Below, in pieces: positions 8,179 through 55,899 of a DNA stretch of 64,000 nucleotides; the stretch's first letter is position 1, and the number at the start of each line of letters is the position of its first letter. Source of the stretch: an uncultured Candidatus Entotheonella sp. (GTDB taxonomy: Bacteria > Tectomicrobia > Entotheonellia > Entotheonellales > Entotheonellaceae); the NCBI GenBank assembly GCA_958295825.1, contig OY282375.1, forward strand, positions 665,489 through 729,488. The letters are read 5' to 3'. The position numbers and the translations under genes are program-made. The notes under the pieces were generated by a model. The model made no database searches. It saw only the letters and a program-made list of their open reading frames with translations, and was not told where the DNA came from.

Positions 8179-11100
8179 ATGGAGCGGCGTGGCAACAGGG
8201 GTGGGCGACATATCGAGACCTACGCGCATACCGACAAGGAGCGTGTGAACAACCCGCCCGTCGGCTTGGTTACACCGGACACCGACCGCGACGCGGGCCG
8301 CAGGACCTACGCTCACGACCCGCACCTGGACCCACAGTTGTCCTGGGCCGGCAAGGCGGAGCATACCTCGTTCGAGGTGCCGACCGTGTCGCTGCACGTG
8401 CACGAACGCATCGACCCGCGTACGATCGTCGAAACAGCGCGCAAGCGCAACGGTGCGGAACCGCAGATGTCCTTGTTCGCCGCGCCGGAGGAAAACCCGC
8501 CGCTCCGTCAGGCTATCGAATTCTACCGGCACCGTCACAACTGGACCAACCGCCTGATTGCCGGCGACAGCCTGCTGGTGATGAACAGCCTGATCGAGAA
8601 GGAGGGCCTTGGCGGGCAGGTGCAGACGGTCTATCTCGATCCGCCCTACGGCATCCGTTATGGCTCCAACTTCCAGCCCTTCGTGAACCGGCGCGAGGTC
8701 ACCGACGGCAGGGACGAGGACCTGACCGGCGAGCCGGAGCAGATTCGCGCCTTCCGGGACACCTGGGAGCTTGGCATTCATTCCTACCTCGCGTATCTCC
8801 GGGACCGCTTGTTACTGGCGCGTGAGCTTTTGCATGAGAGCGGCAGCTGTTTCGTGCAAATCGGCGATGAGAACGTCCACCGCGTCGGCGTGGTCATGGA
8901 CGAGATCTTCGGTGCGGATAATCGGATGACGACGATTTCGTATGCGACAACCGGAGGGAGTTCCGCGAACACGTTGCCGCAGGTGGCGAACTATCTGCTC
9001 TGGTACGTAAAGGACAAGGGGCGCGCCAAGTACCGTCAGTTGTACGAGGAATTGACGCGGAAGGAAATTGTCGAGCAGATGAATTGGGATGCCATGGTTG
9101 AATTGGAGGATGGCAGTTGTAGATCGCTGTTGGCCACTGAGAAAGCTGATCCAGACAGAAACTTGCCATCGGGTGCCCGGCTGTTCCAACGCGCCATGCT
9201 GACATCACAACACGAGTCGCGCACCGGACGGTCTGAACCATACAAAGTCAGCGGAAGAACGTATATCTGTCCACGGAATCGGCAGTGGCAAGTGAGCAAA
9301 GAGGGCCTTGATCGTTTGACAGAAATTGGTCGCTTGGATTTCAGCGGACAGCACGCCAGACTGGCCTGGAAACATTACGAGGAGGAGATTCCGGGGAGGC
9401 GGTTAAACAATGTCTGGGCGGATCTGGCTCGCCCGGTCGACAAGCTTTATGTGGTTCAGACAGCGATTAAACTCCTGCAGCGAGCCATCCTGATGACCAC
9501 CGACCCCGGCGACTTGGTGTTCGATCCCACCTGCGGCTCCGGCACCACCGCCCACGTTGCCGAGCAGTGGGGCCGCCGCTGGATCACCTGCGACACCTCG
9601 CGGGTAGCCATCGCCATTGCCCGGCAGCGGCTGATGACCGCCAATTACGATTATTACGAGCTGGCCCATCCCGACGAGGGCGTCGGCGCCGGGTTCCGCT
9701 ACCGCAGCGTCGCCACCGTGTCGGCGCGAACCTTGGCCTACGACGAGCCGCCCAACGAGACCTTGCTCTACGACCAGCCGCATCGCGATCGCCGGAAGGC
9801 CCGCGTCACCGGTCCGTTCACCGTGGAGGCGGTGCCGGCTCCCGTCGTCAAGGCCGTGGATGAGATCATGGATGCTCATCCCGACCCCGGCGCAAGCCCC
9901 GCCGCCGACCTTTCCATCGCTCGCTCCGGCGAGACCCTGCGGCAAAGCGACTGGCGCGACGAATTGCTCAAGACCGGCATTCGCGGCAAGGCCGGACAGC
10001 GCATCTCGTTCGCGCGGCTGGAACCGTTGCCGGGAACCCGCTGGCTGCACGCCGAGGGCGAGACGCGCCCGGACACCGCCGGCGCCGACCACGTCCACGA
10101 CCCCGCAACCGCCTACACGTCCACGCCCCTTGTCGCCTCGTTCGGGCCGGACCACGCACCCCTGGAGCAGCGGCAGGTCGCCCGCGCCATCGAGGAGGCG
10201 CAAAGCCTCGTCCCCAAACCGAAGATGATTGTCTTCGCGGCGTTCCAGTTCGACCCCGAGGCGGCCAAAGACATCGACGAGACCCACTGGCCCGGCGTCA
10301 CGCTGCTCAAGGCGCAGATGAACGCCGACTTGCTGACCGAGGACCTGAAGAAGAAGCGGGCGAGCAACGAGAGCTTCTGGCTGATCGGCCAGCCGGACGT
10401 GGAAGTTTCGAGTTTTCAGTTTTTGGTTTTTGGTGAGGGGCAGCGGAGGATTGGCGGCTATGGAGCGTTCAGGAAGCTATCGGGACTTGAGCGTTTGGAA
10501 GAGATCAATCGGCTTGATTGGCAGGCTCTATGCCTCTACGCGCTCCTGTCCCAGGGAAGAGACGTATGGCGTTACCTCGCAGATACGCAGGGCTGGGATT
10601 TCGATAGCGGCCAATCTCGCGGAAGGCCAAGCCAGCAACACGAGCGGGGAGTTCCGGCAGTTTCTTGGAATAGCCCAAGGCTCGTTGGCGGCATTGGAAA
10701 CGCTGCTGACGATCTCGCAGAATTTGGGATATCCGACCTCGCCGGATGCCGCAGGGTTATTGAGCGACTGCGAGGCGATCGGCGGGTTGTCGGCGGGCTT
10801 GCAGAAGTCGCTGAAGCCCTGGATTTTCCCATCCATCCCCACGCTCGAACCTATCAACTCACAACTCAAAACCTGCACAGCCTCGCGGTGCGCGGCTTTG
10901 ACTACTACAACACCAAGACCGGCAACGTCGAATCCGGCGGCGCGGACCGCATCGCCCTGTGGATGCTCGACCCGGATTACGACGGGCGCAGCCTGTTTCC
11001 GCGCCAGGTGTTCTTCCCCATGGCCGGCGGCAATGACGGCTGGGCGAGATTGGCCCGTAATCTCAGAGCCGAAATCGACCAGGGCCGGATGGAAGCCTAC

Positions 11101-11208
11101 CGCGGCACGGTGTCGCTGCCGTTCGAGGCGGGAGAGCATGGACGGGCGGCGGTGAAGATTGTGGACGACCGGGGGATCGAGAGTTTGAAGATCGTGGAGT
11201 TGGGGTGA
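8179..11208 (+). CDS. mod: Type III restriction-modification Mod (N6-adenine DNA methyltransferase) subunit carrying an in-frame about 150-codon insertion
   Basis: DPPY motif (VYLDPPYGIRYGSNFQPF) followed by AdoMet motif I (LVFDPTCGSGTTAHVAEQ), the beta-class order. Mod C-terminal signature ...GFDYYNTKTGNVESGGADRIALWMLDPDYDGRSLF...AAVKIVDDRGIESLKIVEL. The codons between ...LIGQPDVEV (about 10405) and LTTQNLHSLAVRGFDYY (about 10860) are not Mod-like. Confidence 0.85.
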   Translation: MERRGNRGGRHIETYAHTDKERVNNPPVGLVTPDTDRDAGRRTYAHDPHLDPQLSWAGKAEHTSFEVPTVSLHVHERIDPRTIVETARKRNGAEPQMSLFAAPEENPPLRQAIEFYRHRHNWTNRLIAGDSLLVMNSLIEKEGLGGQVQTVYLDPPYGIRYGSNFQPFVNRREVTDGRDEDLTGEPEQIRAFRDTWELGIHSYLAYLRDRLLLARELLHESGSCFVQIGDENVHRVGVVMDEIFGADNRMTTISYATTGGSSANTLPQVANYLLWYVKDKGRAKYRQLYEELTRKEIVEQMNWDAMVELEDGSCRSLLATEKADPDRNLPSGARLFQRAMLTSQHESRTGRSEPYKVSGRTYICPRNRQWQVSKEGLDRLTEIGRLDFSGQHARLAWKHYEEEIPGRRLNNVWADLARPVDKLYVVQTAIKLLQRAILMTTDPGDLVFDPTCGSGTTAHVAEQWGRRWITCDTSRVAIAIARQRLMTANYDYYELAHPDEGVGAGFRYRSVATVSARTLAYDEPPNETLLYDQPHRDRRKARVTGPFTVEAVPAPVVKAVDEIMDAHPDPGASPAADLSIARSGETLRQSDWRDELLKTGIRGKAGQRISFARLEPLPGTRWLHAEGETRPDTAGADHVHDPATAYTSTPLVASFGPDHAPLEQRQVARAIEEAQSLVPKPKMIVFAAFQFDPEAAKDIDETHWPGVTLLKAQMNADLLTEDLKKKRASNESFWLIGQPDVEVSSFQFLVFGEGQRRIGGYGAFRKLSGLERLEEINRLDWQALCLYALLSQGRDVWRYLADTQGWDFDSGQSRGRPSQQHERGVPAVSWNSPRLVGGIGNAADDLAEFGISDLAGCRRVIERLRGDRRVVGGLAEVAEALDFPIHPHARTYQLTTQNLHSLAVRGFDYYNTKTGNVESGGADRIALWMLDPDYDGRSLFPRQVFFPMAGGNDGWARLARNLRAEIDQGRMEAYRGTVSLPFEAGEHGRAAVKIVDDRGIESLKIVELG
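10460..11155 (+). CDS. Four-helix-bundle protein (TIGR02436-like, '23S rRNA intervening-sequence protein' family) ORF embedded in mod in the +1 frame
   Basis: MERSGSYRDLSVWKRSIGLIGRLYASTRSCPREETYGVTSQIRRAGISIAANLAEGQASNTSGEFRQFLGIAQGSLAALETLLTISQNLGYP...LQKSLK matches the 4HB family over the first ~118 codons (to about 10810). GGAGGA RBS sits 8 nt upstream. The frame then stays open to 11155, so the 3' end is uncertain. Confidence 0.55.
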   Translation: MERSGSYRDLSVWKRSIGLIGRLYASTRSCPREETYGVTSQIRRAGISIAANLAEGQASNTSGEFRQFLGIAQGSLAALETLLTISQNLGYPTSPDAAGLLSDCEAIGGLSAGLQKSLKPWIFPSIPTLEPINSQLKTCTASRCAALTTTTPRPATSNPAARTASPCGCSTRITTGAACFRARCSSPWPAAMTAGRDWPVISEPKSTRAGWKPTAARCRCRSRRESMDGRR

Positions 11209-11259: not shown

Positions 11260-12066
11260 ATGGCGCCAACGAAAAAAGGCAAAGCGCTTGAACGGTTGCG
11301 GAAGGCGCTGGACGAAATCGCTGAATTGAAACAATTATCGTCGGATTCTCCGCAATTCAAGACATGGCGGAGAAATGCAGGGGTTGCCATCAGAGAAACG
11401 TTTGGTAGTGCTTCAGATCATATCAGGGAGTTTAGAGGATCACAGTTTGCTGTTTCTGGTCGATCTGATTCCGAAATTAGAAAGGCCTATATACGAGATT
11501 TGGAATCGGATGCGGCGATGCTTCAATCCATGATTGATGAGGTTAATGAGTATTGGAAAGACGAGAGCGAGATGCCAGGATCTTCCGATAGTCACGGAAA
11601 CGAACAGGTAAACACGAAAGAAGTCTTCATCGTTCATGGCAGGGACGAAGGTGCCCGCGAAAAGGTGGCGAGGTTTCTGGAAAGGTTGGGACTCGATCCC
11701 GTGGTGCTGCACGAACAGCCGAATGAGGGCCGCACGATTATTGAAAAGTTTGAGGGTTATGCGCACGTCCGGTTTGCTGTGGTTCTGTTGACGCCAGACG
11801 ACAGAGGCGGACTTCAGGACGATGAGGGCAGTTTCAAGCCCCGCGCAAGGCAAAACGTCATTTTCGAGTTCGGGTACTTCATCGGAAAGCTCGGTCGGGA
11901 ACGCGTCTGCGCCTTGGTGAAGGGGGAGGTGGAAAGACCGTCAGATTACGATGGCGTTATTTACATTACACTTGATGATTCGGACGGGTGGAAAATGAGA
12001 CTTATCCTGGAGCTGAAGAACGCCGGATACGATGTCGACGCGAACCGGGCATTTACTACACCATGA
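11260..12066 (+). CDS. Two-domain protein: uncharacterised N-terminal domain plus C-terminal TIR-like (COG4271/pfam10137-type) domain
   Basis: C-terminal ...KEVFIVHGRDEGAREKVARFLERLGLDPVVLHEQPNEGRTIIEKFEGYAHVRFAVVLLTPDD... fits the TIR-like nucleotide-binding domain. The N-terminal ~110 aa are homologous to the N-terminus of the protein at 32978-34261. Located between mod and res. Confidence 0.7.
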   Translation: MAPTKKGKALERLRKALDEIAELKQLSSDSPQFKTWRRNAGVAIRETFGSASDHIREFRGSQFAVSGRSDSEIRKAYIRDLESDAAMLQSMIDEVNEYWKDESEMPGSSDSHGNEQVNTKEVFIVHGRDEGAREKVARFLERLGLDPVVLHEQPNEGRTIIEKFEGYAHVRFAVVLLTPDDRGGLQDDEGSFKPRARQNVIFEFGYFIGKLGRERVCALVKGEVERPSDYDGVIYITLDDSDGWKMRLILELKNAGYDVDANRAFTTP

Positions 12067-12080
12067 ACGCAGCCCAGGCA

Positions 12081-12164
12081 CATGCGGTTCGATCTCGACG
12101 ACATGGAACTCGAATTGAAGGAAATTTTTGGGCGCAAGGTCGATCTGGTCAGTCGGCGGGGATG
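12081..12164 (+). pseudogene. C-terminal remnant of a minimal nucleotidyltransferase (MNT/MntA-type antitoxin) gene
   Basis: Translates MRFDLDDMELELKEIFGRKVDLVSRRG*, the conserved MNT C-terminus (...LEELLGRKVDLV). Only 27 codons remain. Confidence 0.45.
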
Positions 12165-12247
12165 AGGCGAGTCCCAACGATCTGCGCAGGAACGGCCTCC
12201 TGAAGTCCGCCCGGGTGATCTATGGACCGTGACGCCCCGCACGTCGT

Positions 12248-15193
12248 ATGGACGACGGCGCACGGGCAAATTCCGGAATGGCTGGCGCCGCCAACGTCCG
12301 ACGAACCCCTGGAGAGCGAATAGTGGCCCGCACGACAATCGATCAATTGATCGTCAATTCTCCCTACGAAGAGCCGGCGGAACACTGGTAGTACGACCGG
12401 GTTACACGCTCGTTCGACCGTGCAGAAGGCCGGCGGCCGGCAGGCTATGTCGTCGCTTCCCAGGCTTCCAGGGCGTTTGACGACCCCGGCGCGTTTGTCG
12501 AAATCCCCTTGGTCAATCAGATCCGGCCGCGCGTCAAGGCGTGGCGTGAGGCGGGATATCCGGGCGTCACCGGCATGACCAAGCGGCTGCTTACGCACTG
12601 GACCGACCCGGAGGAGTTTGACAGCCGGCGTTTCTTCTTCTGCCAGGTCGAAGCGGCGGAGACGCTTATCTGGTTCACCGAAGGGCCGGCGGTCGAAAAG
12701 GTCGGCGTGGAGATTCCCTCCGATGGCGGCGCGTTCAGACGGCTGTGCGCAAAAATGGCGACAGGCTCAGGCAAAACCGTCGTCATGGCGATGGTGGCGG
12801 CGTGGCACGTCCTGAACAAGGTGACGTCGCCCCAGGACACCCGGTTCGCCAGGCACATTCTGGTTGTCGCGCCGGGGTTGACGGTCAGGAACCGCCTGGC
12901 GGTGTTGGAGCCGTCCCACCCGGAGAACTATTACGACGCCTTCCGCATTGTGCCGCCGGCTCTGCTCGATAAGCTGCGACGGGGCAAGGTCGCAATCCGC
13001 AACTGGCACGCGCTCAACTGGGAGGGTGAGGACAAAATCGCCGCCCGGCGCGGCGTGGACAAGCGCGGCGCCAAAAGCGACGAGGCCTATGTCCGCGACG
13101 TGCTCGGAGACATGGCGCGAGCGCGGAACATCCTGGTCATCAACGACGAAGCGCATCATGCCTGGCGCGTTCCTGCCGGACCCAAGCTGAAGGGCGTGGC
13201 CAAGGCCGACGTCGACGAGGCCACGAAATGGATTGGCGGGCTCGACCGCATCCACGGGGCACGGGGCATTCTCGCCTGTTATGACTTCTCGGCAACCCCA
13301 TTCGCGCCGTCAGGCAAGCAGAGTTCCGAAGAGGCGCTGTTCGGCTGGATCGTGAGCGACTTCGGCTTGAACGACGCTATCGAATCGGGTTTGGTCAAGA
13401 CGCCGCGCGTGGTGATCCGGGACGACGCAGTGCCCGATGCCAAGAGCTACAGATCCCGCCTCTATCACATCTACAACGATGCGGAGGTCAAGGACGACCT
13501 GAACCGCCGCGCCAAGACGGAAGAACCGCTGCCCGATCTGGTCCTGAACGGCTATTACCTGCTTGGCTATGATTGGCGCGAGACGGCGAAAGACTGGCGT
13601 GAGAAGGGATTCCAGACCTCGCCGGTCATGATTACCGTTGCCAACCGCACGGAGACGGCAGCTCGCATCAAGTACGCGTTTGATCACAAGAGGGTCCGCA
13701 TCGAGGAGCTATGCGACCCGGAGCGAACCCTGCACATCGATTCGAAGGTGCTTGAAGCGGCCGAGGCTGCAGCGGAGCCCATTTCGGACATTGACGCGGG
13801 AGAACGCGCGGGAGGTGGAGACGATGGCCCTTCGACGCAGCTCACCAAAAAACAGCAGGCCGAGTGGTTGCGACGGCGGGTGGACAGTGTGGGCCGGGTC
13901 GGCAAGGAGGGTGAGCGAATACTGAACGTGATTTCCGTCGGCATGCTGTCCGAAGGATGGGACGCGAAAACCGTGACCCACATCATGGGGCTGCGCGCGT
14001 TTACCAGCCAGCTTCTCTGTGAGCAGGTGGTCGGGCGCGGCTTGCGCCGGACCGCTTATGAGGTGGACCCGGATAACGGCCTGTTCCAGCCGGAATACGT
14101 CAATATCTTCGGTGTGCCCTTTGCCTTTTTACCTCATGAGGGTGGAACGGACGGCCCACCGCCGCCGCCGGAACCAAAGACGGCTATCGAGCCGGTAGCG
14201 GACAAGGCGGGTTTCGAAATCTCCTGGCCGAACGTGGTCCGCATCGACCACGGCTTCCGTCCGCACCTGTCCCTGGATTGGCAGGCGCTGCCTCCCCTGG
14301 CACTGGATGCCAGCCAGACGGCTCAACTGGCGGAGCTTGCTCCGATCGTCGAAGGCAAGCCCGACGTGTCGAGGATCGAGGCCATCGATTTGCAAGAACT
14401 GGCGGCGGAGTTCCGCACGCAGCGCATCGTCTTTGAGACCGCGCGGGACGTGTACGATCTGATGCAACCGAATTGGCCGGGCGGCAAGGCGTTGCTGCTG
14501 GCTCAGCTGGTACGGTTGATCGAGCAATTCGTCCGTTCGGACCGCATCAGGATGACCCCGGCTCTGTTCCGGCACGACGATCTCAAGCGCCGCCTCGTCA
14601 TCACGTTGAACATGACCAAGGTCGTGCAGCATGTCTGGGAGGCAATTCGCTTCGAGAACACCGAAAGACCGGAGCCGGTGTTTGACCGGGACCGTCCTGT
14701 CCGTTCTACGGGTGACATGGCGACGTGGTACACGGGCAAGCCCTGCGAGCGCGCGGCGCGCAGCCACGTCAACTTCTGCGTCTACGACAGCACGTGGGAG
14801 GCGTCGGAAGCCTTCGTGTTCGACCGTGCCGACGAGGTAGCCGCCTGGGTAAAAAACGATCACCTTGGCTTCGAGGTGTTCTACGTTCACCGAGGCGTGG
14901 TGCGGAAGTATCGCCCGGACTTCCTGATCCGGCTCGGCTCGGGCGACATGATGGTTCTGGAGACCAAGGGCCGTGACAGCGATCAGGACCAAACCAAGCG
15001 TCGGTTCCTCGACGAATGGGTGCGTGCCGTCAATGCTCATGGTGGCTTCGGTCGCTGGTCTTGGGACGTGTCGAAAAATCCCGGTGATGTCCGGGACATT
15101 CTCGCAAGGCATCTACGTGCTGCGGGCAACGTCGCGGCGATGGAAACACCCAGGGTTCGGGGCGACGCGTCGAACCGGGTTTCTGGCCGGTAA
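12248..15193 (+). CDS. res: Type III restriction enzyme Res subunit (SF2 helicase plus C-terminal PD-(D/E)xK nuclease), frame interrupted by an in-frame TAG at 12389-12391
   Basis: Helicase motifs ATGSGKT, VINDEAHHAW, SEGWDAKTV and QVVGRGLRR. C-terminal nuclease region FEVFYVHRGVVRKYRPDFLIRL...VLETKGRD. The N-terminal Res-like stretch ...TIDQLIVNSPYEEPAEHW*YDRVTRSFD reads from the ATG at 12248 through a TAG in the same frame as the 12509-15193 ORF. Confidence 0.8.
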
Positions 15194-32977: not shown

Positions 32978-34261
32978 ATGAGGAAAGATAAGGCGCTTGG
33001 GCGATTGCAGAAAATTTTGGATGAAGTTGATGGATTGAAGCAATTTTCTTCGTCGAGTTCTCCGCAATTTGAGAGATGGTGGAGAAACGCGGAGCTTGCT
33101 ATCGAGAAAGTATTTGGCAGTGACTCGAGTCATATCAAACGTTTTAAGAATGCAAGGGATGCTAGAGTAAATGTTGGAGTGCTTCTTTTTGTTAATTTCG
33201 GTCCGGTTGGTCCTGATGGGGTTAAGAAGGATTACATACAAGATTTAGAGTTCTATGCGGCTATGATTCAGTCTATGATTGATGAAGTCGGTGAGTATTG
33301 GGAGGATGGGAAAGAGGTATTGTCATCTTCTAGTTCTTCTAGCAGTCTTGGAAATGAGCAAATAATGACTGGCGATTTGAAGAAGAAAAAGGTCTTTCTG
33401 AGCCACAAGAGCGATGATAAGGAACTCGTGATCGACTTTAAGGAAACCTTGAAAATTCTAGGTTACGACCCATGGTTGGATGAAGATGCGATGTCTGCCG
33501 GTACGAGACTTGAACAAGGACTTCTTGAAGGCATGCAGGATTCCTGCGGCGTTGTTTTTTTTGTTACTTCGTCTTTCAAGGATGAGGGTTTTTTGAGCAC
33601 CGAAATTGACTATGCGATTCAAGAGGAGCGAAAGAAGGGTAATAAATTCAAAATTGTTACCTTGCAATTTGTTGATGCTGATGGCAACAGGAGTGAAATT
33701 CCGGGATTACTCAAGCGTTATGTTTGGAAAAAGCCGAAAACAAGGCTTGAAGCACTACGAGAGATTGTTCATGCGTTGCCTGTTGCTTCTTTGGGTATTG
33801 GCTGGCGGGGTGAAATTGGAGGAGTCGTTGTTAGGTCTGAGGGGGATGAAGGTGTTCTTGTTGGGTCTGAAAGGAGATTGGTAGTTGCAAGACTTTCTGA
33901 GGAAGCAAAGACTTTGCTGAAGACGGCAGTGGATAATAAAAAACAGATTGGGTATTTTTCTTATGGCAGTGGTGGTGTTGGTGAGCTTATTACTATGGGA
34001 GGAGAGGAGTTTTTGTCGTCTGATAAGGAGACGCTTGAAACAATGGCTAAGTGGAGAGGAGGTTTGAAGGATTTAGAAAGAGAAGGGTATGTCAAAAAGG
34101 AAGTTGAAGGAGAAGGAGATCAAGGTTTATATACGGTTACGCGAGAGGGTTATGAGGCAGCAGAATATTTGGAGATGGAAATTCAGGCGATACCAGAAAA
34201 AGTAAGAGTGTCGGTTGTTGGGAAAGAGGGTGATGAGGTTAGAAGCAGTTTCATAACTTAA
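32978..34261 (+). CDS. TIR-domain protein with the same uncharacterised N-terminal domain as the 11260 protein, plus a C-terminal extension; AT-rich
   Basis: N-terminus MRKDKALGRLQKILDEVDGLKQFSSSSSPQFERWWRNAELAIEKVFGSDSSHIKRF... is about 50% identical to the 11260 N-terminus. TIR motif KKVFLSHKSDDKELVIDFKETLKILGYDPWLDEDAMSAGTRLEQGLLEGMQDSCGVVFFVTSSFKDEGFLSTEIDYAIQE. The stop codon lies inside the IS left inverted repeat. Confidence 0.75.
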   Translation: MRKDKALGRLQKILDEVDGLKQFSSSSSPQFERWWRNAELAIEKVFGSDSSHIKRFKNARDARVNVGVLLFVNFGPVGPDGVKKDYIQDLEFYAAMIQSMIDEVGEYWEDGKEVLSSSSSSSSLGNEQIMTGDLKKKKVFLSHKSDDKELVIDFKETLKILGYDPWLDEDAMSAGTRLEQGLLEGMQDSCGVVFFVTSSFKDEGFLSTEIDYAIQEERKKGNKFKIVTLQFVDADGNRSEIPGLLKRYVWKKPKTRLEALREIVHALPVASLGIGWRGEIGGVVVRSEGDEGVLVGSERRLVVARLSEEAKTLLKTAVDNKKQIGYFSYGSGGVGELITMGGEEFLSSDKETLETMAKWRGGLKDLEREGYVKKEVEGEGDQGLYTVTREGYEAAEYLEMEIQAIPEKVRVSVVGKEGDEVRSSFIT

Positions 34262-34294: not shown

Positions 34295-34768
34295 ATGGCT
34301 GAAAGGAGGCCTGATATGAACCGCCATCAGAGTGAACTAAGCGATGAGCAGTGGGAAAAAATCGCTCCCTTCCTGCCCAAACCCCAAGCCTCGCCTTGGG
34401 GTGGACCCAAACCAATCCCCAATCGCCCTTGCTTCGAGGGCATCTTGTGGGTCCTTCGCAGCGGCGCCCGCTGGAAAGACCTGCCAGCGTCCTATCCTTC
34501 TCCCAGCACCTGTTGGCGTCGTCTGTGCCTCTGGGAGGAGCAAGAGGTGTGGCTTAAGGCATGGCGCGCCTTTCTGGCGCAACTTGACCGCCAAGGACAG
34601 CTTGATTGGGCCGAAACCTTTGCTGACGGCAGCTTTGCCCCGGCCAAAAAAGGGGGCCTTGCGTCGGCCCTACCAAGAAGGGCAAAGGTACGAAGTGGAG
34701 GGGGGTGGCAGACGGCCAAGGTGTTCCTCTGGGAAACCTCCTGGAATCGGCGTCCGCAGCGGAAGTGA
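34295..34768 (+). CDS. IS427-like transposase OrfA (DUF4096 N-terminal domain)
   Basis: MAERRPDMNRHQSELSDEQWEKIAPFLP...GGPKPIPNRPCFEGILWVLRSGARWKDLP... Confidence 0.8.
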   Translation: MAERRPDMNRHQSELSDEQWEKIAPFLPKPQASPWGGPKPIPNRPCFEGILWVLRSGARWKDLPASYPSPSTCWRRLCLWEEQEVWLKAWRAFLAQLDRQGQLDWAETFADGSFAPAKKGGLASALPRRAKVRSGGGWQTAKVFLWETSWNRRPQRK

Positions 34769-35100
34769 CCTTGATCGAGCGGGCCTTGACACAGGTGTCG
34801 GTGCCGCGTCGTGGCCGCGGTCGGCCTCGCCAAAAGCCCGCGCGCCTCATTGATGACAAGGCGGCGGACGCAGACGCCCTTCGCCAGCGTCTGCGGTCTC
34901 GGGGCATTGATTTGATTTGCCCGCATCGCAGAAACCGTAAACGAGCCTCCTTGCAGGATGGTCGCAAGCTGCGCCGTTACAAACGTCGTTGGAAAGTTGA
35001 GCGAAGATTTCCTGGGTGGGCAATTTTCGTCGCTTGGTGGTGCGCTGGGATCGCTATATTGAGGTCTACCGCGGCTTCTTTCATATCGCGTGCATGCTGA
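34645..35100 (+). CDS. IS427-like transposase OrfB (DDE C-terminal part), expressed as an OrfAB fusion by -1 frameshift or transcriptional slippage at AAAAAAG
   Basis: The -1 frame from the A-run reads ...KRGPCVGPTKKGKGTKWRGVADGQGVPLGNLLESASAAEVTLIERAL...LIDDKAADADALRQRLRSRGIDLICPHRRNRK...KRRWKVERRFPGW..., typical of IS427 OrfB. Confidence 0.7.
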   Translation, partial: QKRGPCVGPTKKGKGTKWRGVADGQGVPLGNLLESASAAEVTLIERALTQVSVPRRGRGRPRQKPARLIDDKAADADALRQRLRSRGIDLICPHRRNRKRASLQDGRKLRRYKRRWKVERRFPGWAIFVAWWCAGIAILRSTAASFISRAC

Positions 35101-35901: not shown

Positions 35902-36417
35902 CTATTCCGCTGCCAGCTTGGAGAAATGCTCTTTGAGCAGATCTATCCCAATGTCAGTACCAAAAAGCAATTCATTAGAATTATCTGCCATGACTTTAGA
36001 CCACGGACTGTCCGCCTCGTGTGTTTTCATGGATAACTGCCCAGCCGTCCATTGCCCATACACTCCCCAAATTGCGTCGAGCAGTTTCTGTGTGTCTTTG
36101 TCTTCTTCGGGCACCTTCGGTGTTACCAATTCCAGTCTGCCTGATGCGGCGCTGCCGCGGTATTCTATGGTCGTTATGAGGTCTGTTATGGGGTCAGTAC
36201 CCCAAGATTTTAGGTCCTGGTACAGCGAAGGAATGACGGGACCATAATACCAAGCTTCCACCTGCTCGTTTATGAGCGGCTTCTGGGTAATTCCGAGGTG
36301 CCATCCATGGGCAAAGTAGACCAGCTTCTGCACCTTCATGTGGGTGATAGGTCTTTCCCGTCCGGCACGTTCCAGGAAATAGTTAGCTATGGCACAGGCT
36401 CTGTAGGGAGTAGCCAT
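35902..36417 (-). CDS. DUF4065 (Panacea domain) protein, SocA/PanA-type antitoxin-like
   Basis: MATPYRACAIANYFLERAGRERPITHMKVQKLVYFAHGWHLGITQKPLINEQVEAWYYGPVIPSLYQ..., the conserved N-terminal core of DUF4065/Panacea. Confidence 0.7.
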   Translation of the reverse strand: MATPYRACAIANYFLERAGRERPITHMKVQKLVYFAHGWHLGITQKPLINEQVEAWYYGPVIPSLYQDLKSWGTDPITDLITTIEYRGSAASGRLELVTPKVPEEDKDTQKLLDAIWGVYGQWTAGQLSMKTHEADSPWSKVMADNSNELLFGTDIGIDLLKEHFSKLAAE

Positions 36418-36610: not shown

Positions 36611-37273
36611 TCAAGGAGTGCTGTCAGACACAGTCAACGAATTCTGGCACAATTGTAAAATCAACGAATTCTGGCCAAACGGCCAGATATTTTTAATTTG
36701 CATAATAGGACTCACGTCCGTTCCCACGAGTCCTGATTCCATCGCGGTTCTGTGCAATTCGCCGGTGCTTTCCAGGCTGCCTCCCGCCTGTTCGTGGAAG
36801 ACAAGAATGCGTCGGTATCCCGCTCGGAGCAGCGTTCCCGTTCCGCAGGTAAGGTCCGCGAGCCGCCTTTCGGCGTTTTTGGCGAAGAGGTCCGCCGACT
36901 TCCAATCGTCGGGATGATCGTTCCAGCGTATGGTCAGCCCGGCAAGGAGTTCCGCTGTCCATGGATTGGTGTAAAAGGCGGCGGCCTCCTTGCGGTCTTC
37001 GCTGAGCTTGGGGAATAACTCGGCGCCGATGTTGATTTGTTCGCCGAGTCTCGCCTCCTCGATTTTCAATACGGCTTCGGCGAGAAGTTTCAAGGTGAAA
37101 GCGGTGTCGCCAGGGGTGATGATTACCGTTCGTTCAAGGACTTCGACTGCGGGTTCGAAGGTTGAGCGCCAGTTCCATTCGAGGATTTGTTTCCATACCT
37201 TGATGGTGTCGGTTGGAGAAGGCGCGAGGCCAATTGGGGGGATGTCGTTGACGCCTTGCTGCATCTTGCACAA
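36611..37273 (-). pseudogene. Truncated N-terminal fragment of an N6-adenine DNA methyltransferase (type I HsdM / type IIG / PglX-like)
   Basis: ...AAFYTNPWTAELLAGLT...ADLTCGTGTLLRAGY (FYTP-like and motif I-like). Homology is lost after about 36780 and the ORF ends at about 220 aa. A full enzyme would be three to five times longer. Confidence 0.45.
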
Positions 37274-42122: not shown

Positions 42123-42341
42123 ATGGCTGAAGAATTTGTCCGCAAGGAGCACTTCGACGAGTCCGCCGTTCGTATAGATGAGCGTTTTCTTGGCATTGAA
42201 AAGCGGATGGAACAGGGTTTTGCCCACGCGGAAAAGGCACGGGAACAGAGTTTTGTTCATCTCAACCAGCGGCTCGATAGCATTGAACGCCGCCCACCGC
42301 ACCCGCACTTCCGCGACGCTACCAATCCGAGCGACTCTTGA
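42123..42341 (+). CDS. Small hypothetical protein
   Basis: 72-aa ORF with a GGAAAGGGGAACA-ATG RBS. Charged and helical, no recognisable family. Confidence 0.3.
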   Translation: MAEEFVRKEHFDESAVRIDERFLGIEKRMEQGFAHAEKAREQSFVHLNQRLDSIERRPPHPHFRDATNPSDS

Positions 42342-42350
42342 GGGAATCCC

Positions 42351-44355
42351 CATGCGAGCCCTGGAAATGCGCGCCGTAGCCCGGTGCATCGTCCGTTTCA
42401 GCCGTGACCGCAAGGCGTGTCTGTACTACACCGCCTGCGTCGTCTTGCTTGTCGCCGCGGCGGGGCTGCGCTTCCATGATCTGTCCGAGCACCAGCTACG
42501 GTTCGACGAAGCGGTAACGGCCAACAATTCGAGAGGCACACTCTCGGAAGTCGTCTCAGGCACTCGTTGCTGCAACTCCAATCCGATCCTGTACCCCTTG
42601 GTCCTGTACGCGGTGCAGAAAGTCGAGAGCACGATCTTCAGCGTCCGAATTGTGCCGGCGACGGCCAGCGTTCTGACCATCGCCTTGATGCTCTTCTTTC
42701 TGCCGCGCCTCGGCGTCGCTCGGGGCGCCGCGTTTCTGGCGGCCCTGCTCGCCACGCTTTCCGTTGAGGCAATCCGGCACGCCCAGGATGTGCGGGAATA
42801 TTCCATTGACGCGCTGGTGGCCCTGTTCATGGTGGCGGGGCTGCTACGGTATCTGCGAGACGGAAGGACCGCCCTGCTCTGCGTCTCTCTGTTCCTCGCG
42901 CCGCTTCTCCAGTACGGCTTGGTCCTGTTCGGCGCCGCCGTCATTGGCGCCGCCCTCGTCGCTCCACGCGTCTCCGGACAGGGAAGGTGGAGTGCCTATC
43001 CTGGCCGGATTGGTGGCTGGCTGAAAAGGCGCCTGGACTTGGCCGCGCCCTGTGGGTTCTTCCTGGCCGGAGGTGCCTTGAGTTACTTGGCGACCTTGCG
43101 CCATCAATGGCAGGAAGGGGGGTTCGCCTCGGGTAGTTATTTATCGGGGTATTACTATCAGGAAAAATTCGATGCGTACTCGATTTTCGAGTTTTCGATT
43201 GACGGTATTTGGAGCTTGTTGAAGTATCATTTGCCGGAGGTTGTTGCGATAGCGGCGCTTCCCGCATTCGCGATCCTCCTGATCGCGGCGTTCCTCCGGC
43301 AATTTCAATACGGCGCCATCGCAGTTTCATTCTCGTTTTGCATTGCGGTTTCCGTCGGTGCTGCCGTGCTGGGCATATATCCGCTTGGGGATATTAGGCA
43401 AAGCATCTATCTGGGTCCGATTATTTTCCTGGCGGTCGGTTTGGCGTTTCATTCAGGAGCTGACGCGCTGGCGTCGACCGCACGGCAAGCATGGCTGGGG
43501 CCCCTATTGATCGTGTTATCCGCAAGCGCAGTAGTGCTTTCCGGAGTAGATGCCATACGGCAGATAGATTTGTACCGGCCCCATGACAAAGGCGAGGAGA
43601 TTGTTTCCGTACTACAGGAGCGCACACAAGAAGATGATGTTTTATGCTATCACAGAGACAATCGAGAACTTATAGAATTCCATCTAAAACCGGATCGAGG
43701 AAGGTTAGTATTTGATGGATTAGTTTTTGACGGAAAGGTAGGTCGTGGGTATGGAGAAGAACTATGTTTACAAGAAATGATCGACGAGATCACTCCGTGG
43801 ATTGGAAGAAGCAGACTCTGGTTGGTCTCCAAATACCCTCTGCCCTTTCTGGGAATGCTGCAGACGATGGCCGCGCACGTTCTGGTTGAGCACGTCGTTT
43901 CTGATGGAACACCCAATCTCTATCTGATTGAAGATGCGAAATCCTTGATTCAAATCGCCACCGCCACTGATATGTTTCGAGACATAAAGCCAATCCTACC
44001 TCGCGAGCCGTCAATCCGCTCCACCTTCGACATCTATCTCCGCGGGAACACACTGGTCTATTTCAAGGAACCGTGCGGCGCAGAGTACATGCAGGCAACC
44101 TTCTTCCTGCACTACCAGCCCGTTCACGGGGACGACCTGCCGGCTGATCGCCAACAATATGGCTTCGATGGCGTCCACTTCAACATCTTCGGCTCCAACA
44201 TCTTCAACATCCAAGAGATGCCAGTCGAGCAATGCGTCGCTTCGCAAGAGTTGCCCGACTACGCCATCGCCCTCATCCGCACCGGCCAGTTCTCGTCTAA
44301 TGAGGACGGCTCCTACACAAACATCTGGGAAGGCGAGATCCGCTTCGATGAGTAG
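42351..44355 (+). CDS. GT-C-fold glycosyltransferase (ArnT/PMT family 39-like) membrane protein with a large C-terminal soluble domain
   Basis: N-terminal ~430 aa carry more than 10 TM helices with an ArnT/PMT-like loop arrangement. The ~230-aa C-terminal domain is unassigned. The start is taken at the ATG at 42351 (MRALEMRAVARC...). Confidence 0.6.
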
Positions 44356-45285: not shown

Positions 45286-45391
45286 GTCGCCAACTCTCTC
45301 GAAACTTCAGCTTCTTTACCCCCATGCTCCCTGCAAACAGCGTCATTTGGTTGGCCGTGTGCCTGCTACGGAATCACGGAAGGCCAGAGCC

Positions 45392-48300
45392 ATGACCCTC
45401 GACGCACTCCGAACCTACTGCAATCAGATAACCCGAATCCACGCCACCGGACAGGCCACCGAGCATAGTTATCGTCCGGCTTTCGCGTCCCTGGTCGAAG
45501 CACTGGGCGGCGGCCAGGTCCGGGCGCTCAACGAGCCGTCGCACGTCGCCTGCGGCGCCCCGGACTTCATCGTTGAGCGCCACGGCGTGCCCACGGGTCA
45601 TATCGAATGCAAGAACGTCAGCGTCCACCTGGACGACGTTGAAAACAATGCGCAACTCCGCCGCTACCGCGACGGCCTGCCCAATCTGATCCTTACCAAC
45701 TATCTGGAATTTCGCTGGTATACGGCAGGCCAGCGACGCAAGATCGCCTGCCTCGGACGCTTTGACGGCCAAAACAAAATGGCCTTCGACAGGGTGGGCG
45801 CCGAACAGGTCAGCGCCTTGTTCGACGGCTTCTTTGCCGCCGACCTGCCGATGATCGACAACCCGCGCGAGCTGGCCGAGCGTATCGCCGCCAAGGCGCG
45901 GCTGCTGCGTGACGGCGTGGAGCGTATTTTCGCGCAGGAAAACCCATCCGGGCCGTTGCATGACCTGTTGACGGCCTATCGGCAGGTTCTGATTCAAAAC
46001 CTCAAGCCCACCGATTTCGCCGACCTGCAGGCGCAGACCGCTACCTACGGCCTGTTCGCGGCACGCTGCCAGCACGAGCCGTCGAGGCCATTCACCCGAA
46101 AAGAAGCGATCTTCGCAAAGACAACGCCATTCCTGCGCGACGTCTTTGGCCGCATCGCCGGCCCGGACATCGACCCGCGCATTGCCTGGATCGTGGATGA
46201 TCTGGCGCGCCTCCTGGACCGGGCGGACATGGCGGCGATCCTGACCGATTTCGGCCGGCGCACCCGGCAGGAAGACCCGGTGGTTCATTTCTACGAAGAC
46301 TTCCTGGCCGCCTACGACCCGAAATTGCGCGAAGTGCGCGGCGTCTACTACACGCCCGAGCCGGTCGTCTCCTACATCGTGCGCAGCGTGGATCACCTGC
46401 TACGCGACCGCTTCGGCCTTGCCGACGGCCTCGCCGACACGGCAACGGTTACAGTCGAAAGACCGGACGGCGAACAGGAGACCAGCCCGCGCGTGCTGAT
46501 TCTCGACCCTGCGGCAGGCACCGGCACGTTCCTGCGCGAGGCGATTGCCACAATCCGCGCCACCATCGAGAACAAGGGACTCGGCGGCGTCTGGCCGGGC
46601 TACGTGCGGGACCATCTGTTGCCGCGCCTGTTCGGATTCGAGTTGCTGATGGCGCCCTACGCCATTTGCCATCTGAAGCTGGCGCTGGAGATTGGCGGCG
46701 CGGAGGCGGACTTCACCATGCCGGCGGGCGAGCGGCTGCGGGTTTTTCTCACCAACACGCTGGAGGAACCGCACGAGCGGAGCGGCGCGCTGTTCGCCCA
46801 CGAGATCGTTCGTGAAGCGGCCGGCGCCGATGACGTGAAGCGCAAGAAGCCGGTGATGGTAGTGCTCGGCAACCCGCCGTATTCCGGTCATTCCGCCAAC
46901 AAGGGCGCGTGGATCGCGGAACTGATCGATGACTACAAACGCGGCTTCCCCGAGTTGCAAAAACCGGCGCAGGCAAAATGGCTGAGCGACGACTACGTCA
47001 AATTCACCCGCTTCGCCCAATGGCGGATCGAGCGCAGCGGCGAAGGCGTGCTCGGCTTCGTCACCAATCACGGCTGGCTGGACAACCCGACCTTTCGCGG
47101 CATGCGCCACAGCCTGATGGAAACCTTCGACGAGATTCACGTGCTCGATCTGCACGGCAACGCCAAGAAGAAAGAACGCGCGCCGGACGGGGGCAGGGAC
47201 GACAACGTGTTCGACATTCAGCAAGGCGTCGCCATCGGCTTGTTCGTCAAGCGGTCGGATACCGCCGCCAGACCGGCGCGGGTGTTTCACGCCGACGTGT
47301 GGGGGGAGCGCGAGGCGGGACCCGACGGGGGCAAATACGGCTGGCTCGCCGCCAATGGCGTTGAAACAACGGAGTGGACGGAGCTTGCGCCCAAACCGCC
47401 GCTCTACCTGTTCATCCAGCGTGACGAAGAATTGCTCGGGGAGTACGAGGCGGGGTGGTCCATTCCGGCGATTTTCTCGCCGAACGGCGACCCGGCGCCG
47501 GGGATCGTCACGACGCACGATCAATTTGCGATTTCATGGACCCCGGAAGAAGCCGCGGCCAAAGTGGAGCGTCTGCTTGCCACGACCTCGGAGGACGAGG
47601 CGCGCAGCCAATGGCGTCTATGTTCGCAGAACCAATGGGAGTACGGTCGCGCCAAGCGCGAACTCGCGGACGGCTCGTGGCGCGAACGGATTGAACCGAT
47701 TCTCTATCGCCCGTTCGATGTCAGAACGACCGTGTTCGACGGCAACGTCGCCGTTCACCGGCGCGAGCGTGTCATGCGCCACATGTTGAATGGGAAGAAT
47801 CTGGCGCTGATAATTCCCAAGCAGCATAGGGATGAATTCGGTACTTTAGCGGCGCAATTCATCAGCGCCCATAAAGCCGTTGCGGCCTACGATATCAATT
47901 ATCATTTCCCCCTCTACGTCTATCCATCTACATATCGCCGAGAACCCAATATCGACCAGGACTTCATCAAGACCCTCTCCGCCGCTACCGGTCTCGCCTT
48001 CGTCCCGGACGGCACGGGCGATCTCGAAACCACGTTCGGGCCGGAAGCCGTCTTCCACTACGTCTACGCCATCCTCCACAGTCCCGAATACCGCCGCCGG
48101 TACACCGATTTCCTGAAGTCGGACTTCCCGCGCATCCCGCTGACCAAGGACTGCGAGCTGTTCACGAAACTCGCCACCCTCGGCAAGCAACTCGCCGCCT
48201 TGCATCTCATGGAAACAGAAGGGGAGAACTCACCGGCCTTTCCCGTCGCCGGTTCCAATCGCATGGAGAAGGCGCGGTATGCGCCACCGAACGATGGCCT

Positions 48301-48547
48301 GCCGGGCCGGGTGTGGATCAACCGCGACCAGTATTTCGAGGGCGTTACTCCAGCCACCTGGACCTTCGCCATCGGCGGCTACCGCCCGGCCGAGAAGTGG
48401 CTGAAAGACCGCAAGAACCGCGTCCTGTCGTTCGAGGACATCATTCACTACCGCAGAATCTGCGCGGCGCTCGCTGCAACGCCGGACATCATGGCCCGAA
48501 TCGACGAAACGATTATCGTGTGTGGCGGCTGGCCGCTGACCTGCTGA
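45392..48547 (+). CDS. MmeI-family single-chain restriction-modification enzyme, copy 1 (type IIL/IIG: N-terminal PD-ExK nuclease, gamma-class N6-adenine MTase, C-terminal TRD)
   Basis: N-terminal nuclease-like ...PDFIVERHGVPTGHIECKNV. MTase motifs GVYYTPEPVVSYIV, LDPAAGTGTFL and LGNPPYSG. C-terminal region ...FHYVYAILHSPEYRRRYTDFLKSDFPRIPL...GGYRPAEKWLKDRK... as in MmeI-family TRD/C-terminal modules. GGAAGG RBS before the ATG at 45392. Confidence 0.8.
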   Translation: MTLDALRTYCNQITRIHATGQATEHSYRPAFASLVEALGGGQVRALNEPSHVACGAPDFIVERHGVPTGHIECKNVSVHLDDVENNAQLRRYRDGLPNLILTNYLEFRWYTAGQRRKIACLGRFDGQNKMAFDRVGAEQVSALFDGFFAADLPMIDNPRELAERIAAKARLLRDGVERIFAQENPSGPLHDLLTAYRQVLIQNLKPTDFADLQAQTATYGLFAARCQHEPSRPFTRKEAIFAKTTPFLRDVFGRIAGPDIDPRIAWIVDDLARLLDRADMAAILTDFGRRTRQEDPVVHFYEDFLAAYDPKLREVRGVYYTPEPVVSYIVRSVDHLLRDRFGLADGLADTATVTVERPDGEQETSPRVLILDPAAGTGTFLREAIATIRATIENKGLGGVWPGYVRDHLLPRLFGFELLMAPYAICHLKLALEIGGAEADFTMPAGERLRVFLTNTLEEPHERSGALFAHEIVREAAGADDVKRKKPVMVVLGNPPYSGHSANKGAWIAELIDDYKRGFPELQKPAQAKWLSDDYVKFTRFAQWRIERSGEGVLGFVTNHGWLDNPTFRGMRHSLMETFDEIHVLDLHGNAKKKERAPDGGRDDNVFDIQQGVAIGLFVKRSDTAARPARVFHADVWGEREAGPDGGKYGWLAANGVETTEWTELAPKPPLYLFIQRDEELLGEYEAGWSIPAIFSPNGDPAPGIVTTHDQFAISWTPEEAAAKVERLLATTSEDEARSQWRLCSQNQWEYGRAKRELADGSWRERIEPILYRPFDVRTTVFDGNVAVHRRERVMRHMLNGKNLALIIPKQHRDEFGTLAAQFISAHKAVAAYDINYHFPLYVYPSTYRREPNIDQDFIKTLSAATGLAFVPDGTGDLETTFGPEAVFHYVYAILHSPEYRRRYTDFLKSDFPRIPLTKDCELFTKLATLGKQLAALHLMETEGENSPAFPVAGSNRMEKARYAPPNDGLPGRVWINRDQYFEGVTPATWTFAIGGYRPAEKWLKDRKNRVLSFEDIIHYRRICAALAATPDIMARIDETIIVCGGWPLTC

Positions 48548-48961: not shown

Positions 48962-49147
48962 ATGAAGAACGTCACGATCACCCTGCCGGAGAACCTTATC
49001 GGCTGGCTAAGGAACTAGGCAACGGAGAACAAACGCAGCGTGTCCAAGTGGGTGGCCGAGTTGCTCGAAAAGATACGGCGCCAAGAAGATGAGTACGAGA
49101 CCGCAATGCAACGTGCCCTATCGATCGCGCCTCGCAAAATGGAATAG
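48962..49147 (+). pseudogene. Ribbon-helix-helix (CopG/antitoxin-like) gene interrupted by an in-frame TAG at 49016-49018
   Basis: MKNVTITLPENLIGWLRN*ATENKRSVSKWVAELLEKIRRQEDEYETAMQRAL... is a typical RHH antitoxin pattern (MKNVTI.LPE.L...L...A.....S.S..V.ELL) with a stop at codon 19. Confidence 0.45.
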
Positions 49148-49193
49148 ATCGACAGCCCTAAGCCATCTCACGAAGAGAGGAAAAGCACAACAA

Positions 49194-49883
49194 ATGAAAG
49201 CGTCAACCGAATGGATAAACATTGCTTACCAAGCTAAATTCGACGTCCCCTTGTTTGACTTGGCAACACGATCACCTGAATTTCAACAACACATATACAA
49301 GGCAATCCGGTCAGACTATCCATATGCGTTAAGCTTGGCGGACATGCACCTTTTCACAAGCGGAATTCAAGCGGAAACCGAGTTACAAATCAAGATGTTC
49401 CACGGCAACGTTTCAGTCAACTTAACTCGTGAACGTTTAGCGATAGACTTCTCCGACATAAACTGGAAGACGGACCTCAACACATGCAAGACATGTATTG
49501 ACCTGGTATGGAAAAGCCTTTTTCAGACTTGGACCGATATGAATATGAGTTTGCTCACAGATTTAATCAGTACCTCGCTTTCCCTGCGTGCTGATGGCGC
49601 GGCACGTCATCTTGAGGAGGTTGTACCGACTAATGAATTCTACGTTGATCCGACTCAGCTCGATGCCACCGAAAGACATCCGGCCGTTGTCATCGAGCTC
49701 GGCAATTCGAAAAATGGGTGGCGAGCAATGGCCAATGCAACCGCGCAAACTCAGGACAATTTGTTCGTATTTTGCCAGACTCGATACAATGCTTCCAGCA
49801 TACCGCTTACCGATCGCGTCGCCAAACAGCTTGATCTGGTTAATTTGATCCTTCATGGAATCAAGGTGGAACTGGAACTATGA
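49194..49883 (+). CDS. Hypothetical protein (229 aa), AT-rich, translationally coupled (ATGA) to the downstream DUF2384 antitoxin-like gene
   Basis: MKASTEWINIAYQAKFDVPLFDLATRSPEFQQHIYKAIRSDYPYALSLADMHLF... GAAGAGAGGAAAAG RBS. No recognisable family. Confidence 0.5.
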   Translation: MKASTEWINIAYQAKFDVPLFDLATRSPEFQQHIYKAIRSDYPYALSLADMHLFTSGIQAETELQIKMFHGNVSVNLTRERLAIDFSDINWKTDLNTCKTCIDLVWKSLFQTWTDMNMSLLTDLISTSLSLRADGAARHLEEVVPTNEFYVDPTQLDATERHPAVVIELGNSKNGWRAMANATAQTQDNLFVFCQTRYNASSIPLTDRVAKQLDLVNLILHGIKVELEL

Positions 49884-55553: not shown

Positions 55554-55800
55554 GCAGAAAGGGAAGGGGTTTGATTTGGTTGCGGGTTGGTGATTGACGG
55601 TGTTTGTTGTCGTCGGTTTTCTACTGTCGTCGGTCGGCTTCGCGGAGGTGAAGCCGACTGGGGTTGGTACGAGACGCGCTTTGTCGATTCCCTCGGCGTG
55701 CTGGTAGGGCTCAATGTGAACATGGTGGAGGCCGCCACGCCGAAACCCGATTTTCCCGTGCCGAGGGTTTTCTATGTCGGTCTGGGTTTTCCCTCCGGCG

Positions 55801-55890
55801 AATAGTCCTGCAGCACGACAAAAATGTAAAAATTTCAGCCCGCCTGAGCACCTTGCTTCCGGTCGATCAGCGACCGACTTTTTGTGCAAA
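55801..55890. repeat. Dispersed repeat copy, inverted relative to 31221-31335
   Basis: tcctgcagcacgacaaaaatgtaaaaatttcagcccgcctgagcaccttgcttccggtcgatcagcgaccgactttttgtgcaaagccg. Directly abuts the IS5-family element. Confidence 0.7.
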
Positions 55891-55899
55891 GCCGATGAA

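Follow-up and report, generated by a model that had tools for sequence, protein, structure and literature searches.

Background

What does a conserved N-terminal domain do when a single genome couples it to two different TIR-type effectors? This question is raised by two genes, here called A and B, in a 64,000-nucleotide stretch of DNA (the window) from an uncultured Candidatus Entotheonella sp. (assembly GCA_958295825.1, contig OY282375.1). A prediction made from the letters of this stretch alone (the original prediction) had described their products as paralogs from a candidate undescribed family of defence proteins, in which an unassigned N-terminal domain (the N-domain) precedes TIR effectors. 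The explanation that we favor, with modest confidence, is that A and B are single-chain abortive-infection proteins whose N-domain, a predicted four-helix bundle, gates the oligomerization-dependent activation of a TIR NADase.

Two genes with a common N-domain and different TIR domains

The domain arrangement of both proteins is summarized in Table 1. BLASTP aligns A and B over 166 amino acids (aa) comprising the N-domain and the linker, with 46% identity and E=6e-28; for the N-domains only, about 100 aa long, the identity in a MAFFT alignment is 53-54%. As judged from these alignments, the similarity is far above chance. The architecture originally proposed is confirmed by Pfam: a Ser-rich linker leads to a PF10137 (CAP12-PCTIR_TIR) domain in A (aa 122-239, 136.8 bits against a cut-off of 24.7), and to a PF13676 (TIR_2) domain in B (aa 139-249, 49 bits against a cut-off of 28) followed by a 178-aa tail. 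The motif GNEQ(V/I) stands directly N-terminal of the TIR domain in both linkers, and because it is kept in A and B it suggests that in B the linker was retained and the effector behind it exchanged. Across 67 homologues the linker length ranges from 0 to 42 aa.

The two genes had been regarded as paralogs. The GC content is ~65% for the window, 53% for the kilobase with A and 43% for the kilobase with B. Because of this strong difference, and because the two are only ~50% identical, it is more likely that A and B were acquired separately as homologues than that they arose by recent duplication.

Table 1. Genes A and B, their domains and adjacent genes in the window
Feature	Position	Strand	Basis and remarks
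Gene A	11260-12066	+	Open reading frame (ORF), ATG start, 268 aa; alternative GTG one codon upstream (11257); four-helix N-domain, linker, PF10137 TIR-like domain; PADLOC PDC-S35 member
A N-domain, aa 1-101	11260-11562	+	AlphaFold2 (AF2) model, conserved columns, profile search
A linker, aa 102-121	11563-11622	+	Acidic, Ser-rich, C-terminal end GNEQVNTKE; predicted local distance difference test (pLDDT) of model ~60
A TIR-like domain, PF10137, Cap12/Pycsar-effector type	11623-12063	+	Pfam E=4.6e-40
Gene B	32978-34261	+	ORF, 427 aa; N-domain, poly-Ser linker, TIR_2 domain, C-terminal extension
B N-domain, aa 1-110	32978-33307	+	Alignments; PDC-S35 hidden Markov model; phrog_29450 N-terminus
B linker, aa 111-138	33308-33391	+	SSSSSSSS, then LGNEQIMT
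B TIR_2 domain, aa 139-249	33392-33724	+	Pfam E=1.1e-12
B C-terminal extension, aa 250-427	33725-34258	+	178 aa; weak winged-helix-like signal at aa 363-404
Type III restriction-modification (R-M) Mod methyltransferase	8179-11208	+	PF01555; directly upstream of A
MNT (nucleotidyltransferase antitoxin) remnant	12070-12226	+	Frameshifted; tblastn of related-cassette proteins; NTP_transf_2 in neighbors
Type III R-M Res helicase-nuclease	12323-15193	+	PF04851; downstream of A
IS5-family transposase	34295-35100	+	Two ORFs (DUF4096, then DDE_Tnp_1); Pfam

Both TIR domains retain a putative catalytic glutamate. In A, the motif NVIFEFG (aa 199-205) is matched in alignment by NVVFEFG in Cap12 (structures 9lmq and 7un8), and its Glu203 (codon 11866-11868) corresponds to the residue of NV(V/I)FEFG that we take to be catalytic, as in TIR-STING. 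The pattern N-V-x-F-E-x-G is kept in 68 of the 74 homologues that combine the N-domain with a PF10137-like domain. In B the segment FLSTEID aligns to WTNYELD of the AbTIR NADase (E=1.9e-6), which makes Glu209 (codon 33602-33604) the putative catalytic residue. From the conservation of these motifs we infer that A and B are NADases. Those TIRs of the PF10137 clade that have been studied so far are filament-forming NADases (PMC13142454).

The exact sequence of B is present in public collections, and a 395-aa protein (P0006) is the sole close homologue that was found. The tail of B gave only below-threshold Pfam matches, to DUF4364, PadR and HTH_34, with E-values of 0.007-0.1. It may represent another unnamed accessory domain, possibly of the winged-helix type. 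A pattern L..EA..LL…GKEF…W.G.L…(V/F)TxEG in this tail is common to the C-terminus of P0006 and, by eye, to that of P0035 (BLAST and inspection); the latter protein carries a PF10137-type TIR.

Membership in a catalogued candidate family

The proposal that these proteins form an undescribed family does not hold for A. Its residues 7-264 match positions 4-262 of the 264-position PADLOC profile PDLC05005 (PDC-S35) with E=9.4e-88 and 292 bits, and the profile PDLC05004 is matched as well; since the PDLC05005 match runs from end to end, the PDC-S35 model takes in the N-domain. Protein A is also a full-length member of phrog_16442 (E=2.9e-58), and the N-domain forms the N-terminus of phrog_29450; the function of both groups is annotated as unknown in PHROG. 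The match of B to PDC-S35 is confined to aa 1-163 on profile positions 1-144 of 264 (E=4.6e-8), with no full-length match. By these profile matches, A is a new member of the catalogued candidate family PDC-S35, and B is an apparent effector-swapped variant outside the existing models. The PDC collection comprises 145 untested phage defence candidates, drawn from genes that lie within Hma, BREX, DISARM and Type I R-M loci (Payne et al., bioRxiv 10.1101/2024.01.29.577857).

Fold, distribution and conservation of the N-domain

Modelled by AF2 from a 79-sequence alignment, the N-domain of A reached a pLDDT of 88.5 and a predicted template modelling score (pTM) of 0.79; a single-sequence AF2 model of full-length A had a pLDDT of 43.6. 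The N-domain is confidently predicted to be an independent fold, a generic four-helix bundle with three long helices and one short, at residues 5-23, 31-48, 53-59 and 70-98. Conservation falls mainly on aromatic or hydrophobic residues (W36, F48, F58, L88, W99), accompanied by polar K6, R38, S90 and E94 and by A9. The loop between helices 3 and 4 varies in length and contains an insertion of ~10 aa in B.

An exhaustive profile search with five N-domains as query, in which the matched proteins were clustered at 50% identity, detected the N-domain in 932 clusters at E<=1e-3 and in 374 at E<=1e-10; word-indexed searches, whether the query was one of the two N-domains or the 79-sequence profile, returned only 0-8 proteins. 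Among the 150 best cluster representatives, the domain lies nearly always at the extreme N-terminus, and three proteins (P0024, P0054, P0078) have two N-domains in tandem. The earlier statement that it belongs to no characterized family is borne out: isolated N-domains had no Pfam or NCBIfam match even at permissive thresholds, a sequence profile search of the PDB gave no match, and Foldseek found no match at E<=0.001 in the PDB and BFVD. Its resemblance to FAT or vinculin-type interaction domains is that of a generic helical bundle.

Compared with the attached TIR domain, the N-domain diverges more rapidly: its mean identity is 45% versus 57%, and it has the lower value in 88% of pairs. For the N-domain of A, dN/dS is 0.5 on 108 codons in comparison with the closest DNA relative, but since this relative is a truncated copy the value is uninformative.

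In the public record, gene A begins at Met87, so that the N-domain is omitted: the NCBI/ENA protein P0005 is identical to residues 87-268 of A, and the full 268-aa sequence is missing from the collection searched. Taken literally, this record would mean that the N-domain of A is untranslated and that the true product is a 182-aa protein. We consider this highly improbable, since the 86 codons upstream of Met87 are open, match a profile present in 932 clusters and are included in the complete PDC-S35 match; moreover, they are modelled within a confident fold, with Met87 inside helix 4. The mis-started entry conceals the N-domain, which is a practical point for annotation.

Effector modules joined to the N-domain

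A Pfam scan of the 150 best of the 932 cluster representatives assigned the PF10137 TIR to 66 proteins, the DpnII-MboI restriction endonuclease (REase) to five, TIR_2 to four and TIR to two, whereas Hypoth_Ymh, the HEPN-type AbiJ_NTD4, EAD7 and Nuc_deoxyrib_tr were found once each; the rest are either short or carry C-terminal parts to which Pfam assigns nothing. Further fusions connect the N-domain with a PDC-S32 module (P0061), with the PLD-like module PDC-S05 (P0137), with an REase that matches the C-terminus of Aga_Helical-REase, and with transmembrane segments (P0105, P0143). The N-domain is therefore combined with six or more types of effector, in agreement with the modularity and effector preference proposed originally. 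Several of these effectors correspond to other PADLOC models, of candidates or of defence systems (PDC-S32, PDC-S05, Aga_Helical-REase). None of the 150 top matches contains an NTPase or exceeds 443 aa.

TIR, REase, PLD-type and HEPN-type enzymes are generally held to act as dimers or oligomers. This common feature of the fused enzymes is our main reason for favoring activation by proximity, and regulated self-association as the probable role of the N-domain.

One of the REase fusions, WP_001527023.1 (phrog_29450; DpnII/MboI-type), is encoded in the accessory region of a filamentous prophage (Zot, pII and pIV-like genes) on a Klebsiella plasmid (locus L084, NZ_CP132684.1, 74288-75082) and 24 of 5426 complete E. 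coli genomes encode it as well. As a relative native to E. coli, it offers experimental access to the N-domain. Its gene lies between those for a hypothetical protein of 140 aa and a DUF6953 protein, and the plasmid carries the prophage as a tandem duplication.

The Mod-TIR-Res cassette and other genomic contexts

Related loci were collected by a motif-anchored scan of species-representative genomes with a 24-sequence alignment, which yielded 103 relatives, of which 80 loci were kept. The N-domain is joined to a PF10137-like domain in 74 of these loci and to a canonical TIR in one, and the remaining five encode truncated copies. The hosts are nearly all represented by metagenome-assembled genomes (MAGs) of Dehalococcoidia/SAR202, Binatia, Latescibacterota, Entotheonella, Caldilineaceae, Nitrospirales, Gemmatimonadota and similar groups; their lineages and isolate names point to consortia typical of marine sponges.

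In 17 of the 80 loci, from at least 8 phyla, the TIR gene is located between Mod and Res genes whose products are 60-89% identical to those of the window; for the Mod upstream of the TIR gene in other phyla, the range is 60-82%. The sequence identity of Mod and Res across such distances implies recent transfer of the cassette between phyla. Sponge symbionts have been reported to be enriched in R-M genes and to exchange them laterally (PMC8163846). The order within the cassette is Mod, the TIR gene (usually first after Mod and on the same strand), optional further genes, and Res. The start of the TIR gene overlaps or abuts the Mod stop codon in ~6-7 of 15 cassettes. An intact MNT gene, often paired with HEPN (DUF86), separates the TIR gene from Res in ~8 related cassettes. 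In four loci (L008, L016, L058, L075) the gap between Mod and Res contains an AAA_15/21 ATPase of ~480 aa (AriA/PD-T4-4_A-like by PADLOC) together with an unannotated 182-aa protein, and because this two-gene unit also occupies the gap, we regard the latter as a slot for multiple defence cargos. The embedded TIR proteins are 54-62% identical to A, no closer than copies outside the cassette, so what the slot contains is either exchanged or subject to faster evolution than the frame around it.

Beyond the cassette, the neighbors of N-domain genes include AAA_21/AAA_15 ATPases, SoFic, SIR2_2, PIN, HicB and MADS components, and a close truncated relative of A adjoins a transposase, HipAB and a Type I HsdM. 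The expectation that such genes often reside in defence or toxin-antitoxin loci is supported, with the Type III R-M system as the recurrent case. Truncated or frameshifted copies are frequent, comprising P0001-P0004 in addition to the five loci mentioned above. Two of them (P0002 and P0003), from different large contigs, break off at an identical position within the TIR domain (…GRTIIAI… in place of …GRTIIEKFE in A), which suggests a shared insertion or recombination site.

In the window, A resides in a Type III R-M locus and B in a stretch of 43% GC next to an IS5 element, as originally described. This description needs to be corrected with respect to Res, which has an early in-frame stop at 12389-12391 (AEHW*YDR, where homologues have AEHWQYDR). 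Homologues align from 12323, and an intact ORF starts from TTG at 12509. As read from the sequence, Res is either ~62 aa shorter at its N-terminus or inactive, and Mod and A are intact; the R-M locus around A is partly decayed. Gene B is preceded by SPFH and small-membrane-protein genes and directly followed by the transposase.

Several other observations were made in these regions. The Mod gene contains a 462-nucleotide insert (10420-10881), through which the Mod frame remains open and in which an ORF nested in another frame (from 10430) encodes a four-helix-bundle protein of the PF05635 family (E=3.6e-28); the 857-aa Mod of locus L068 lacks the insert, and a Nitrospirales MAG locus (L030) has the same arrangement of Mod and insert, with 82% identity over 1031 aa. 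Kinship between the N-domain and this PF05635 (23S_rRNA_IVP) protein was considered and rejected (hhalign probability 0.13%). Approximately 1.6 kb past B and the insertion sequence (IS), a SocA/Panacea-domain antitoxin gene (E=4e-21) lies beside a 220-aa ORF with no Pfam match (35905-36417 and 36614-37273, both on the minus strand); the latter could encode the toxin of this pair. At 45347-48547, 57721-59346 and 59543-62734 the window encodes two large proteins with N6_Mtase and Type_ISP_C domains (Type ISP/IIG-like R-M) and an ATPase with AAA_21 and DUF4435 domains (OLD/ABC-ATPase type), which make the right half of the window a dense defence region. Three ORFs in this half (42178-44355, 49089-49883, 54297-55928) belong to no family.

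Interpretation and alternative explanations

According to the explanation that we favor, the C-terminal TIR domain would be an NAD+-consuming effector that, as in other bacterial TIRs, becomes active only once several TIR domains have assembled. The N-terminal four-helix bundle on its flexible linker would serve as a control module that keeps the effector inactive or separated, until a signal of infection causes the N-domain to self-associate or to release the effector. Gene A would be cargo of a horizontally mobile Type III Mod-X-Res cassette, and gene B an effector-swapped copy in an IS-flanked islet of low GC content. Multiple observations argue for this explanation. A matches PDC-S35, whose candidates are defined by being embedded in defence systems, and is itself embedded in a Type III R-M system. 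The Glu of the catalytic motif is conserved in A, in B and in most homologues. A constant N-domain is combined with swapped effectors, occurs in tandem and diverges faster than the TIR domain. The neighbors are often defence or toxin-antitoxin genes (Type III R-M, MNT/HEPN, AAA_15/21, SoFic, SIR2_2, PIN, and HipAB with Type I HsdM), some members are borne by phages or prophages (phrog_16442, phrog_29450 and the filamentous prophage of E. coli and Klebsiella), and truncated or frameshifted copies are as frequent as would be expected of costly genes. From these observations we infer that the N-domain is a trigger or oligomerizer, and that A and B have an anti-phage function.

A number of points weigh against this explanation. 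A generic helical fold with no informative structural neighbor indicates neither a ligand nor a trigger, and lower conservation is to be expected anyway of a non-catalytic domain. The sample of loci is biased by the search motif SMI[DE]E[IV]xEY, the neighbor tallies are raw counts with no baseline from random genes, and many neighbors are housekeeping genes (GATase, CoA-transferase, CTP synthase). The PDC systems are explicitly unvalidated, including in later work, and a literature search on PDC-S35, WP_001527023 and PF10137 in combination with defence found no paper that names the family or tests its function.

The main rival casts A as a guard of the Type III R-M system, in the manner of PrrC. 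The TIR protein would be kept latent by the Mod/Res complex, perhaps via the N-domain, and would fire when a phage anti-restriction factor disables the enzyme, so that the three genes form one system. The recurrence of the gene between Mod and Res in at least 8 phyla, its nearly constant place as first after Mod on the same strand, the overlapping or abutting starts, and a gene call in another contig that merges the Mod C-terminus with the TIR gene (P0010) would all fit such a guard, for which prrC inside the EcoprrI hsd locus provides a precedent. On the other hand, such an R-M system is missing from 63 of the 80 loci and from the surroundings of gene B, and the cassette copies, being no nearer to A than outside copies, show no co-divergence with their frame. 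The slot also houses unrelated cargo (MNT/HEPN, or the AAA ATPase with its 182-aa partner), which fits an insertion hotspot, and in the window it is Res that has the early stop whereas A is intact. Taken together, these data make the guard unlikely. Somewhat less probable still, in our opinion, is a constitutive role of the N-domain in oligomerization or scaffolding, similar to the coiled-coil N-termini of bacterial TIR proteins, the fusions being toxins or addiction modules that stabilize mobile cassettes and sense no phage. This would be consistent with a generic bundle akin to FAT or vinculin-type interaction domains, with tandem N-domains, with mobile contexts (IS-associated or laterally transferred) and with nearby toxin-antitoxin genes. 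However, no conserved adjacent antitoxin or other partner gene was found, as besides Mod and Res no neighbor family recurs in >8 of the 80 loci, and a constitutively assembled TIR NADase would be toxic, as exemplified by TirC, so that some gating is needed.

A role in host interaction or outside defence, either as a symbiont TIR that interferes with host TIR signaling or in NAD or nucleotide metabolism, appears very improbable. The apparent association of nearly all 80 loci with sponge consortia and the closeness of the B TIR to AbTIR-type proteins would agree with it, but the alternative effectors (REase, PLD-like, HEPN-type) are intracellular modules that target nucleic acids, the gene is embedded in R-M cassettes, and members occur in prophages of E. 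coli and Klebsiella. The taxonomic skew may also stem from the search motif, and from lateral transfer and enrichment of R-M genes in sponge symbionts (PMC8163846).

Significance

A broader generalization of abortive infection controlled by the N-domain is possible, though we regard it as doubtful at this stage. The N-domain would be an unnamed and widespread four-helix trigger, present in at least 932 clusters, that converts an infection signal into self-association and thereby turns on any attached oligomerization-dependent effector (TIR, REase, PLD, HEPN). In symbiont consortia of multiple phyla it would travel as the first cargo of a Type III R-M operon, forming a coupled unit of restriction and abortive infection in which the R-M enzyme is possibly guarded.

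If active, the proteins would constitute a family of compact TIR defence systems of one gene each, with a control domain that also occurs on at least five further classes of effector, and identifying a single trigger would account for hundreds of proteins that have no annotation. Conserved at 60-89% identity over phyla, the Mod-TIR-Res operon provides a clean natural case for distinguishing cargos from guards among genes embedded in R-M systems. This work adds the fold of the N-domain, its breadth and partner effectors, the multi-phylum Type III Mod-TIR-Res operon and the mis-annotated start of gene A. Among many similar candidates, the family is a good experimental target.

Comparison with known systems

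The closest counterparts are the founding examples of PDC-S35, with which A shares a single-gene composition and the embedding in another defence system. The frame of A is a Type III R-M system, in contrast to the Hma, BREX, DISARM and Type I R-M systems of the founding screen. Gene B differs further by its other TIR subtype and its extra C-terminal domain, and matches PDC-S35 through the N-domain only.

With Cap12 (TIR-STING) and PycTIR, A shares the PF10137 subtype of TIR and the conserved motif NV(V/I)FEFG, on which grounds an NADase activity through oligomerization is expected by analogy. Assignment of A as a CBASS Cap12 or Pycsar effector was nonetheless rejected, since A, like B, has no STING, SAVED or cNMP-binding domain and no adjacent cyclase gene, and since it scores only 31-40 bits with NCBIfam Cap12, where the cut-off is 450. 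Lacking such a sensor domain, A cannot be activated through a cyclic nucleotide bound to one. Similarly, B was rejected as a Thoeris ThsB, given that its ThsB matches are weak (E>=1.5e-4) and that the NCBIfam Thoeris ThcB4 model scores 25 bits against a cut-off of 220; no ThsA gene is found beside A or B. An identity of the N-domain with the effector-associated domains (EAD1-11) or with Death-like adaptors was also dismissed, as Pfam gave no EAD match at E<=10 and no NTPase with an N-domain occurs among the 150 top matches; one N-domain homologue additionally bears EAD7.

In PrrC an ABC-ATPase and an anticodon nuclease form one fusion protein, and its gene is embedded in the EcoprrI hsd locus, a Type Ic system. 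The likeness lies in a suicide effector gene placed between modification and restriction genes on the same strand, here gene A; unlike prrC, most members of the N-domain family are unlinked to R-M genes. CapRel(SJ46) offers a parallel within one chain, where a non-catalytic domain restrains a toxic enzyme domain and could sense phage, although it has unrelated folds and another order of domains. Finally, the AbTIR/TcpB-type proteins also have a helical N-terminal region followed by a TIR domain, and AbTIR is the closest solved structure to the TIR_2 domain of B. The N-domain differs from this region in being a compact, conserved four-helix bundle (as modelled) with no sequence relation to it, and in being carried by non-TIR effectors as well.

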